Origin: Escherichia coli
GTDB lineage: Bacteria > Pseudomonadota > Gammaproteobacteria > Enterobacterales > Enterobacteriaceae
Reading direction: 5' to 3' (one strand)
Length of the DNA stretch: 64,000 nt
Assembly (NCBI RefSeq): GCF_003790525.1
Contig: NZ_CP033635.1
Shown: positions 11,764 through 14,700 of the stretch, one piece after another
How positions within the stretch are numbered: the first letter of the stretch is position 1
Layout: each line of letters begins with the position of its first letter
Position numbers and translations under genes: made by a program
Notes under the pieces: generated by a model
Databases searched by the model: none
Told to the model about the DNA's origin: nothing
What the model saw: only the letters and a program-made list of their open reading frames with translations

Positions 11764-14700
11764 ATGCAAAAGAAAACGTTATTATCCGCCTGTATCGCGC
11801 TGGCTTTAAGCGGATCGGGCTGGGCTGCTGACATTGATGATACAGATAGTGCAACTCGTCAGCGTAAGGAGACAAGGATACCCTGTCCGACCGCTCACTC
11901 CTCTGAAAAACTAAGTCCGCAACAACTAAAATCGCTCCCGTCTGAATGTTCTACAACCAATGACAACAACCTCTATTCCTTGATTGCCGTTGGCGCTACT
12001 TCACTAATCACCACTCTTGCAGTCCTTGAACTAAACCACGATGACGGTAACCACGCTCATTCCTCTGACAATCCTCCAGTACCGCCTGATGACGATAATG
12101 GCGGCAACACACCGGACGATGGCGGCAATACCCCTGACGATGGTGGGAATACTCCTGACGATGGCGGCAACACACCGGATGATGGTGGCAACACACCGGA
12201 TGATGGTGGCAACACACCGGATGATGGTGGCAACACACCGGACGATGGCGGCAATACCCCTGACGATGGTGGGAATACTCCTGACGATGGCGGCAATACT
12301 CCTGACGATGGCGGCAACACACCGGACGATGGCGGCAATACCCCTGACGATGGCGGCAATACCCCTGACGATGGTGGGAATACTCCTGACGATGGCGGCA
12401 ACACACCGGATGATGGTGGCAATACCCCAGACGATGGCGGCAACGTCACCCCGCCCAAAGAGCCTAAAATCTTCAATAACAATGTCACGTTCGACGAAGA
12501 TAAAGGCACGCTGAAAATTCGTAACGCCACCTTTACCTACAGCAAAAACACCGATGGAACTTATACCCTGACGGCTGGAGATGGCCGGACCACTGTTGTA
12601 CAAGGCTGGGATGTCGACACGGCTGCCAATACTGTAGAAATTACTGGCGTGAATACCCAGGGCGGTATGACGTGGCGTTACGGTAAAGACGGCATTATCT
12701 ATATCACTAAAACCGTCGGCGCAACGGTGGATGACCCCGCGAGCAGCAACGTATTTAACCTCAGCGATGCGGTGCTCACTGACCAGGGCGGTAATGCCGC
12801 GCTGAATGGCGCAACGGTGATTGAAATTAACGGCAGCAGGATCGTCCTTAATAACGACGGTGACATTTCTGCTACGGGAAAAGATTCTGTGGTTGTGGCG
12901 ATGACCGGAAACGACATTACCGTTAACAATAACGGCCATATGGTTGTCGATGGCGGCACCGCGGGCGTGGTTAACGGCGATCGTGCGATCCTGAATAACC
13001 GTGGTGATGCGGTGATCACTAACGGGGGCGCGGGTGTCATTGTGACGGGCGACAACGCGGTCATCAACAACACGGGGCAAAGCGATATTGATGGCGACAA
13101 CTCGGTATCGGTAAAAGTCGCAGGAAACGCAACCAGAATCAAAATGGAAGGCGGGCTCAACGTCAGCGGTGGCGCGCATGGCATTGATGCCACCGGTGAC
13201 AATAACGAAGTCAGCAACAAGGGCAACATTTCGGTGGTGGATGCGCATTCCACGGGCGTGCTGCTGAACGGCGATCGCGCGTCATTCGTTAATATGGGTG
13301 ATATTAACGTTAGCGGAGGTGCAGCGGACGATCACGCTATTGGTGTGCAGATTAACGGCGATAACAGTACCTTTATCAACGTTGGAGATTTAAATGCCGA
13401 CGACAGGGCGACCGGGGTGAAAATTACCGGTGACGCCAGCGACATTGCCCTGGCCGGGGCGATGCATGTCGGGGATTTTGCCTCCGGGCTGGAGGTGACA
13501 GGTAAGAACAATGACCTGTCGTTGTCCACCAATATGATGGATGTCACCGGGAAACAGTCCACCGGGGTGACCATTACAGGTGATGAAAATACCATTGATA
13601 TCACCGGTGATATGGTCGTTGATCAAAACTCTGTCGGGACGAAGATTGTTGGTGATCGCGTTTCGTTGCAACAGAAAGGTGATATTACCGTTAACGGTGC
13701 GGGGCACGGCGTTGAAGTCAGCGGTAGTAAGGCGACAATCAATAATCAGGGCAAACTGACCGTAAAAGATCAAGACTCAATCGGTATCGCTATCACCGGG
13801 GATGACGCGCAATTTACCACCGTGGGTGAGATTGATGTCTCGCTGAATGGTACGGGTGTTGCGATCAGCGGCGATCGTGAACAAGTGAATTTGAGCGGTG
13901 ATATAAATATCATTCAGGAGCGTGACGACAGCGGTACTTTCCAGGGCGGGACGGGCATCAGCATAATGAGCAACGACAGCAGCATGCTGTTGGCGGGAAA
14001 CATTAATGTGACGTCCAGCATAGGGGACCAACCGTCCACCTCACACCTGTCGTTAACCGGCGTTACCATCGGGGGGGAAAACAATACTGTCGATCTGCAA
14101 GGCGACGTCAATATTACTGTCGATTCGGGTTACCCGGGGGATGAAAACAGTCTTTACGGCGTGGTGGTTTCGGGGTCAAATAACATCATCAGCCTCGATG
14201 GTGGTATCAATATTTCCGGCGATAGTGGCGGACATGTTGTCAAAGGCGTGCAGGTAACCGGGAATAATACCGTCAATATTAGTGGTCATTCCGTAATGAA
14301 TACCCGACAGGTATTGGGAGCCTTCTCTTTGATTTCGGTGGCTGATGGCGGGAATGTCGTATTTGATGAAAATGCGATAACCGAGATCCAAAGTTCAGTG
14401 AGAAATACTACTGCCCCTCTATTTGTTGATTCATCGTTAATTGTTGCTAAGGGAAATCAGTCTGTTATTCAGAACAAAGGCATTATTAACACAACCGATG
14501 CCCAGGGATTAATGATGGCGAATTCGGGGGCGAAGGTTGTCAATGCCGGGGTGATTAATATCAGGCCAGATGCTGAATCACACAGTTTCTTTGCTGGAAT
14601 GCTGGCAAGAGGCGATGACTCGCAGGCAAAAAATGTCTCCGGAGGGACAATCAATCTGACATCCATTACCCAGCCTTCTTACGGCGGAGGATTTAGTGAA

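Follow-up and report, generated by a model that had tools for sequence, protein, structure and literature searches.

A copy-number-variable, frame-preserving heptapeptide array at the N-terminal linker of an intact YdbA/BigA-family autotransporter of Escherichia coli

The stretch of Escherichia coli DNA analysed here (hereafter the window: 64,000 nucleotides of contig NZ_CP033635.1, RefSeq assembly GCF_003790525.1) carries an intact gene for a large autotransporter of the BigA/YdbA family, and the 5′ part of this gene contains 17 head-to-tail units of a short in-frame repeat—the tandem array that is the subject of this study. YdbA/BigA-family autotransporters are large, essentially uncharacterised surface proteins of E. 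coli, and the copy in strain K-12 is a pseudogene disrupted by insertion sequences (ISs). The open reading frame (ORF) in the window is a 100% match to E. coli SMS-3-5 (NC_010498.1), where it forms a complete coding sequence (CDS; ECSMS35_RS08930, WP_001170210.1). A C-terminal PF03797 barrel, together with BigA_N and BigA_beta domains, places the product among the classical (type Va) autotransporters. In SMS-3-5, the array gene has ydbL upstream and pdxI-ydbD downstream; in K-12, ydbA (b4492), interrupted by IS2D and IS30C, likewise lies upstream of pdxI-ydbD, and the assignment to the ydbA locus therefore stands by synteny. An initial annotation, made from the letters of the window, had described an intact giant ydbA autotransporter: the intact state and the locus hold, whereas the RefSeq name is only the generic ‘autotransporter domain-containing protein’ and the score against the NCBIfam model auto_BigA (NF033178; match covering residues 526-1984) is 1911.5 bits, below the cut-off of 3400. 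The protein is therefore a relative within the family, and not the curated Salmonella BigA.

The array spans 363 bases, with one unit of 27 nucleotides followed by 16 units of 21 nucleotides, which encode, in order, PDDDNGGNT, 15 copies of PDDGGNT and a final PDDGGNV. The resulting 121 residues comprise 35 Asp, 34 Gly, 18 Asn, 17 Pro, 16 Thr and 1 Val. Tandem Repeats Finder reported a period of 21 with 16.5 copies, 86% matches, 0% indels and a score of 426, as well as a higher-order period of 84 with a score of 477, and the array far exceeds chance expectation. Head-to-tail units, each with a length that is a multiple of three, a position within an ORF and a copy number that differs between strains identify it as a coding variable-number tandem repeat (VNTR). 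The 17 in-frame units and the intact gene given by the initial annotation were borne out by the sequence, by Tandem Repeats Finder and by translation. The array does not, however, directly follow the signal peptide as that annotation had it: the repeats start approximately 86 residues past the predicted cleavage site, and in between lie a polar segment with a pair of cysteines, a hydrophobic stretch and a His/Asp patch. At its other end, the array stops eight residues before the BigA_N β-barrel (Table 1).

According to the ORF list and the translation, the array is read in frame 1 of the autotransporter ORF. Eight DNA versions of the unit are present, and the 15 interior units differ at nucleotides 3, 6, 12, 15, 18 and 21 only, i.e., at the third codon positions of frame +1. 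Because the repeat happens to be without stop codons, several further stop-free frames cross it, and the mechanical ORF list accordingly contains 12008-12406(-), 12031-13248(-), 12041-12514(+) and 12057-12530(-). Repeats, moreover, are often mis-assembled, and the array could in principle be an assembly or sequencing artefact, or belong to a gene in another frame or on the other strand. Both possibilities are effectively refuted: 22 independent complete genomes match the window at 100% over 1137 bp (the 17 units plus flanks), the confinement of unit variation to third positions singles out frame +1, and this frame runs on into Pfam-supported domains and homologues.

Table 1. Features of the array gene and its 5′ region, with positions in the window
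Feature	Position	Strand	Basis
AT-rich (28% G+C) intergenic stretch 5′ of the gene	11400..11699	.	composition profile
Intact gene for a 1984-residue BigA/YdbA-family classical (type Va) autotransporter	11764..17718	+	ORF list, SMS-3-5 match, Pfam
Predicted Sec signal peptide, residues 1-21 (MQKKTLLSACIALALSGSGWA then AD)	11764..11826	+	read from sequence; conserved in homologue alignment
Polar segment, residues 22-69, with two conserved cysteines (C41, C62)	11827..11970	+	alignment of 14 family members
Hydrophobic segment rich in small residues, residues 70-90 (LYSLIAVGATSLITTLAVLEL)	11971..12033	+	Kyte-Doolittle; homologues
His/Asp-rich patch and proline lead-in, residues 91-107 (NHDDGNHAHSSDNPPVP)	12034..12084	+	translation
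17-unit tandem repeat, residues 108-228	12085..12447	+	sequence, Tandem Repeats Finder, AlphaFold2, genome comparison
Longest exact internal direct repeat (77 bp), copy 1	12115..12191	+	partner copy 231 bp downstream
Longest exact internal direct repeat (77 bp), copy 2	12346..12422	+	exact-match scan
BigA_N (PF25784) N-terminal β-barrel, residues 237-315	12472..12708	+	Pfam E = 4e-27; AlphaFold2
BigA_beta (PF25783) β-sandwich, residues ~1552-1636	16417..16671	+	Pfam E = 3.3e-24, C-terminal 1084 residues searched
Autotransporter β-domain (PF03797), residues ~1758-1954	17035..17625	+	Pfam E = 8.9e-18

Copy number was surveyed in 5,426 complete E. coli genomes, 185 of which carry this passenger allele class. 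The heptad array was found in 43 of the 5,426, with 17 units in 23 genomes, 16 in nine, 15 in three, 11 in four, and 6, 10, 13 or 18 units in one genome each; an 8-unit heptad allele was additionally present in a metagenome-derived protein from another assembly. These numbers derive from BLAST spans checked on 11 fetched sequences. Spans were reliable for heptad alleles, which gave single-piece, full-length matches, but unreliable for alleles with a decapeptide repeat, where matches begin inside the array, joined pieces are ambiguous and records of equal length gave unequal spans; decapeptide counts were taken from fetched sequences only. The cross-genome comparison that the initial annotation had suggested as a check thus shows an array that varies from 6 to 18 units, even between identical flanks, which supports its view that the array lends itself to changes in copy number. 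Strain LS45 shares the 17-unit array of the window but lacks 2 bp in the 13th unit; the frame is shifted as a result and the gene is annotated as two CDSs, which may reflect either a sequencing error or a true inactivation. With the genes annotated as frameshifted in MS 21-1 and 2014C-3075, the gene appears broken in three genomes.

Unit-by-unit maps, in which the versions of the unit are lettered and the first 27-nucleotide unit is omitted, revealed that related arrays differ by clean indels of 1, 4 or 11 units. Unequal arrays were found between flanks of ~2 kb with zero differences: SMS-3-5 (17 units, ABCDDDABECAFBCGH) versus SBF22 (6 units, ABCGH); CE10 (11 units, GECIGBCJBK) versus N32 (10 units, GECIGBCJK); and TCM3e1 (16 units, GECIIGBCDABCJBK) versus 2014C-3075 (15 units, GECIGBCDABCJBK) and MEC2025-PR (15 units, in another order). 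The array therefore changes faster than neighbouring point substitutions build up. The 22 genomes with an identical 17-unit array and flanks, on the other hand, come from humans, dogs, chickens, a pangolin and river water in different countries, and on that scale the array is therefore not hypermutable.

Both observations bear on the suggestion, made in the initial annotation, of a contingency-like locus. In its strong form, this explanation would have copy number change frequently in clonal populations, with antigenic or length variants being selected during colonisation or under immune pressure. Arrays that outpace nearby substitutions would suit such a locus, and so would the perfect internal repeats of 56-77 bp, which are good substrates for slippage or recombination; the analogous GGXXP repeats, moreover, are the main polymorphic site of Bordetella pertactin (PMC1459169). 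We nevertheless consider this explanation unlikely. The identity of the array across 22 genomes from varied hosts speaks against it, as does the conservation of the encoded amino acids—the opposite of what diversifying antigenic selection on an epitope would produce. The repeat is also of the wrong kind for a switch: outside offsets that are multiples of 21, exact matches extend over at most 7 nucleotides, compared with 77 in register, so that misalignment of the 21-nucleotide units is expected to occur in register and to keep the reading frame. ON/OFF contingency switching is therefore impossible; the array sits inside the ORF, where a change in repeat number alters length alone, leaving frame and promoter as they are.

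The internal structure of the array suggests how units may be gained and lost. The two copies of the longest exact direct repeat are offset by 231 bp, which is exactly the 11-unit deletion of SBF22 relative to SMS-3-5, and further exact repeats of 41-68 bp occur at offsets of 21, 84, 105, 126 and 210 bp. If near-identical 21-bp units, or blocks of several units, mispaired in register during replication slippage or unequal recombination, units would be added or removed, such that the encoded segment would lengthen or shorten in steps of seven residues and the frame would never be broken.

To what extent the peptide itself is under selection was assessed with 18 distinct interior unit sequences pooled from 11 strains. 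Of the 15 synonymous states that a single base change can produce, eight were seen, compared with two of the 48 non-synonymous ones (Fisher p = 6e-5), and both non-synonymous states occur in just one fetched array each. The peptide keeps its sequence but drifts in length, which agrees with the earlier reading of synonymous unit differences as purifying selection on the peptide. Selection would accordingly be of a kind that retains peptide composition and constrains length only loosely.

The wider family offers a second view of this linker. A word-indexed protein search gave mostly N-terminal fragments, useful for extra alleles, and the family survey was based on an exhaustive representative search. 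In every homologue examined, a Pro/Asp-rich linker is found at the same position, with differing repeat types. Other E. coli strains of the same allele class carry 7, 8 or 10 copies of PDDGGDTPVP (118UI, EcPF15, ST69), and partial database entries show two copies. Orthologues in E. albertii contain 3-16 units of PPDDGG[DN]VT by regular-expression count, with protein lengths running from 1796 to 1913 residues in 9-residue steps. Short repeats of the DDSGDDDVTPP type characterise BigA of Salmonella Typhi, and more distant family members have units of 10-11 residues or DNGG-type runs. K-12-type alleles (2,419 genomes), finally, have a non-repetitive linker of ~40 residues. The E. albertii nonapeptide PPDDGGNVT brings an N-V-T sequon with each unit, unlike the E. 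coli heptad: the N-X-S/T sequon is absent from PDDGGNT, and only the final unit of the E. coli array has one (NVT).

Similar heptads exist outside the family. Runs of (T)PDDGG[NETQ] are located directly after the lipobox cysteines of lipoproteins, or before C-terminal membrane or wall anchors, in unrelated proteins, and between passenger and β-domain in a Citrobacter autotransporter. Their recurrence at tether positions in unrelated proteins supports a general function of such runs as flexible, acidic tethers, and the runs look like a convergent acidic linker motif.

This diversity matters for a further explanation, according to which the array is an effectively neutral expansion of low complexity—a by-product of slippage-prone DNA at a place where any linker length is tolerated. 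Functional-looking alleles range from ~40 non-repetitive residues in the K-12-type genomes, through two units, up to 18 units; repeat types vary by lineage; and some alleles are frameshifted. Such neutrality would be hard to reconcile, however, with unit variants so heavily biased towards synonymous changes, with a PDDGG core that is kept in divergent family members and in independently formed repeat types, and with the retention of a Pro/Asp-rich linker at this position in all homologues examined. We therefore regard a neutral origin as possible but doubtful.

The structure of the linker was explored with AlphaFold2, run on residues 1-420 with a 14-sequence family alignment. Residues ~100-228 had a predicted local distance difference test score (pLDDT) of ~36-50 and no secondary structure, which is suggestive of a disordered linker. 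The BigA_N barrel and the first turns of the β-helix, in contrast, reached a pLDDT of ~90, with β-strands beginning around residue 241. The region ahead of the array had a pLDDT of 24-58 and no confident fold, and docking of its hydrophobic segment into the BigA_N barrel is not readable from the model.

Taken together, the reading that we favour, and hold to be quite likely, is that the array is an in-frame coding minisatellite (VNTR) that encodes a disordered, acidic, Pro/Asp/Gly-rich tether of ~121 residues, 35 of them Asp, whose length is loosely constrained. This tether would join a small conserved N-terminal module to the BigA_N β-barrel that caps the β-helical passenger, and we infer a role as a flexible spacer. 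Several points count against this account. The ~40-residue, non-repetitive linker of K-12-type alleles and the existence of two-unit alleles mean that variation in length may have next to no selective effect and that any role as a spacer may be trivial, and the three frameshifted or split alleles suggest weak selection on the gene overall. Low pLDDT obtained from a 14-sequence alignment is weak evidence of disorder, and the mechanism of unit gain and loss is deduced from its end products. Expression of the protein, surface exposure of its N-terminus and a phenotypic effect of linker length are, moreover, putative.

The N-terminal module itself deserves closer description. The signal peptide ahead of it reads as a basic n-region, a hydrophobic core and a cleavage motif GWA|AD, consistent with a Sec signal. 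We also considered a lipoprotein signal at ‘LLSAC’ (residues 6-10), which was rejected: only about five hydrophobic residues precede the cysteine, and the whole 21-residue peptide appears to be a standard Sec type I signal. In the 14-member family alignment, C62 is invariant and C41-P42 is at least 90% conserved. The hydrophobic segment has a 19-residue Kyte-Doolittle mean of 1.53, compared with 1.48 for the signal peptide, and a comparable segment was found in all homologues—an odd, transmembrane-like feature to have inside an autotransporter passenger. A function as a transmembrane stop-transfer sequence was rejected, as it would not fit export of the passenger and barrel downstream. Analogous His/Asp patches also occur in homologues (e.g., NDDDDHHHRNN and NDGDHHDSS). 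The combination of a Cys pair, a hydrophobic segment of ~20 residues and a His/Asp patch (residues 22-107, positions 11827-12084) appears, from these alignments, to be a module common to BigA/YdbA homologues that has so far gone undescribed.

Proximity to this module raises the question of whether the array could have a specific biochemical role as a polyanion, either by binding divalent cations (alone or together with the His/Asp patch) or by providing charge that drives the hydrophobic segment through the Sec translocon and avoids stop-transfer. The abundance of Asp, Gly and Asn (35, 34 and 18 of the 121 residues), the conserved His/Asp patch directly upstream of the array and the conserved hydrophobic segment that closely precedes the acidic region in every homologue would be compatible with such a role. 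Nevertheless, Pfam matched no recognised calcium-binding motif (EF-hand or RTX GGXGXD) and gave no support for a glycosylation motif; the K-12-type linker is much shorter and less acidic, with the hydrophobic segment still kept; and the proposal is purely inferential. Overall, it strikes us as improbable. A bolder idea builds on the same features: BigA/YdbA proteins might display an undescribed ‘tethered tip’, in which a disulfide-capable loop, a marginally hydrophobic helix of small residues and the His/Asp patch would be carried on a polyanionic tether that has been re-tuned by independent minisatellites of 7, 9 and 10 residues. On this view, a membrane- or metal-interacting tip would reach as far as the length of its tether allows, and the recurrent origin of repeats at exactly this position would be explained by selection on that reach. 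We offer this idea as a long shot; the flexible acidic tether remains the preferred explanation of the array.

Several observations were made in the surroundings of the array. In K-12-type ydbA, a larger repeat exists in the passenger, part of which reads NNNGKTTVDGKDS...GGTGTQINGDDATA and which recurs every ~98 residues. In many strains, the first kilobase departs from that of K-12 by exactly 294 bp (spans of 1302 versus 1008 bp), which suggests a second, larger copy-number polymorphism in the K-12-type allele class. Tandem Repeats Finder detected no ~98-residue passenger repeat of the K-12 type in the window gene.

On the 5′ side of the gene, the AT-rich intergenic stretch is, judging by its composition, probably the promoter and regulatory region, and an Rfam scan of positions 11000-12700 matched no family. 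The upstream neighbourhoods of ydbA differ between strains, with ydbL directly before the gene in SMS-3-5 and paaX-paaY-ynbG directly before it in K-12. In CE10 and N32, both from cerebrospinal fluid, an IS3-family element ends ~300 bp before the ydbA start codon and could affect ydbA expression. We further encountered two chimeric ORFs in which the YdbA N-terminus runs into a sequence resembling a phage host-specificity or tail-fibre protein, with the break point within the linker in one and around residue 400 in the other; their make-up implies that prophage-associated rearrangements may truncate ydbA in some strains. Additionally, several autotransporter genes of ~8.5 kb at ydbA are named ‘EntS/YbdA MFS transporter’ in RefSeq, evidently through a propagated mix-up of YdbA and YbdA.

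These findings show that intact alleles of a poorly known family of surface proteins carry a polymorphic, frame-preserving minisatellite, and that different lineages evolved different repeats at one and the same linker position. In practical terms, the array can serve as a strain marker sizable by polymerase chain reaction for the phylogroup lineages that carry it, and both short-read assemblies and annotation of the ydbA gene call for caution. The linker also provides a defined site for probing the conserved N-terminal module.

How does the array compare with known systems? Two family members, ydbA of K-12 and BigA of Salmonella, share the overall architecture of the protein: signal peptide, Cys pair, hydrophobic segment, His/Asp patch, Pro/Asp linker, BigA_N, β-helix, BigA_beta and barrel. 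K-12 ydbA differs in being only ~40% identical to the window protein at the N-terminus and in having a ~40-residue linker with no repeat. Papers that mention BigA describe it as no more than a candidate adhesin that is still uncharacterised, or as a passenger resembling AIDA-I joined to a barrel of the NalP type. We found no paper tying ydbA to a VNTR, where papers naming ydbA and autotransporter were judged by title and abstract, in which neither term appears.

Contingency loci built on simple sequence repeats of 1-7 nucleotides, as in Haemophilus, Neisseria and Bartonella, shift the reading frame or promoter spacing and switch expression at high rates. Like them, the YdbA array is a repeat tract in a surface-protein gene that is open to slipped-strand mispairing; unlike them, it has a 21-nucleotide unit with in-register homology only, is stable across the 22 related genomes and is altered in length alone.

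The SD ‘R region’ of the ClfA/Sdr proteins of Staphylococcus aureus is a long acidic repeat with synonymously varied units and strain-variable copy number, and is regarded as a flexible spacer. Acidic, low-complexity composition and DNA-level degeneracy of units in a surface adhesin are common to both. The staphylococcal repeat, however, separates the ligand-binding domain from the wall anchor, so that it sets how far this domain projects, and belongs to a Gram-positive organism with another secretion route. The YdbA array does not occupy such a stalk position between surface anchor and functional domain: at residues 108-228, it is the part farthest from the barrel (residues ~1758-1954). An effect of copy number on adhesin length, as first proposed in the initial annotation, is consequently doubtful, with the array at the distal N-terminal end and not between passenger and membrane anchor.

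Pertactin of Bordetella has a (GGXXP)n repeat in region 1 and a (PQP)n repeat in region 2, and repeat number is the main source of its alleles (PMC1459169). The resemblance to the YdbA array lies in short, Pro/Gly-rich, in-frame repeats with strain-variable copy number in the passenger of a classical autotransporter. In pertactin, however, a few units of five or three residues sit in loops of the β-helix and near its C-terminus, whereas the YdbA array has a 7-residue unit in up to 18 copies, is strongly acidic and forms a separate N-terminal linker. The pertactin repeats are documented antibody targets. The array points to no new mechanism of variation: it follows a familiar theme of VNTRs in adhesins, with no phase-variation switch, and the GGXXP/PQP polymorphism of pertactin is its closest counterpart.

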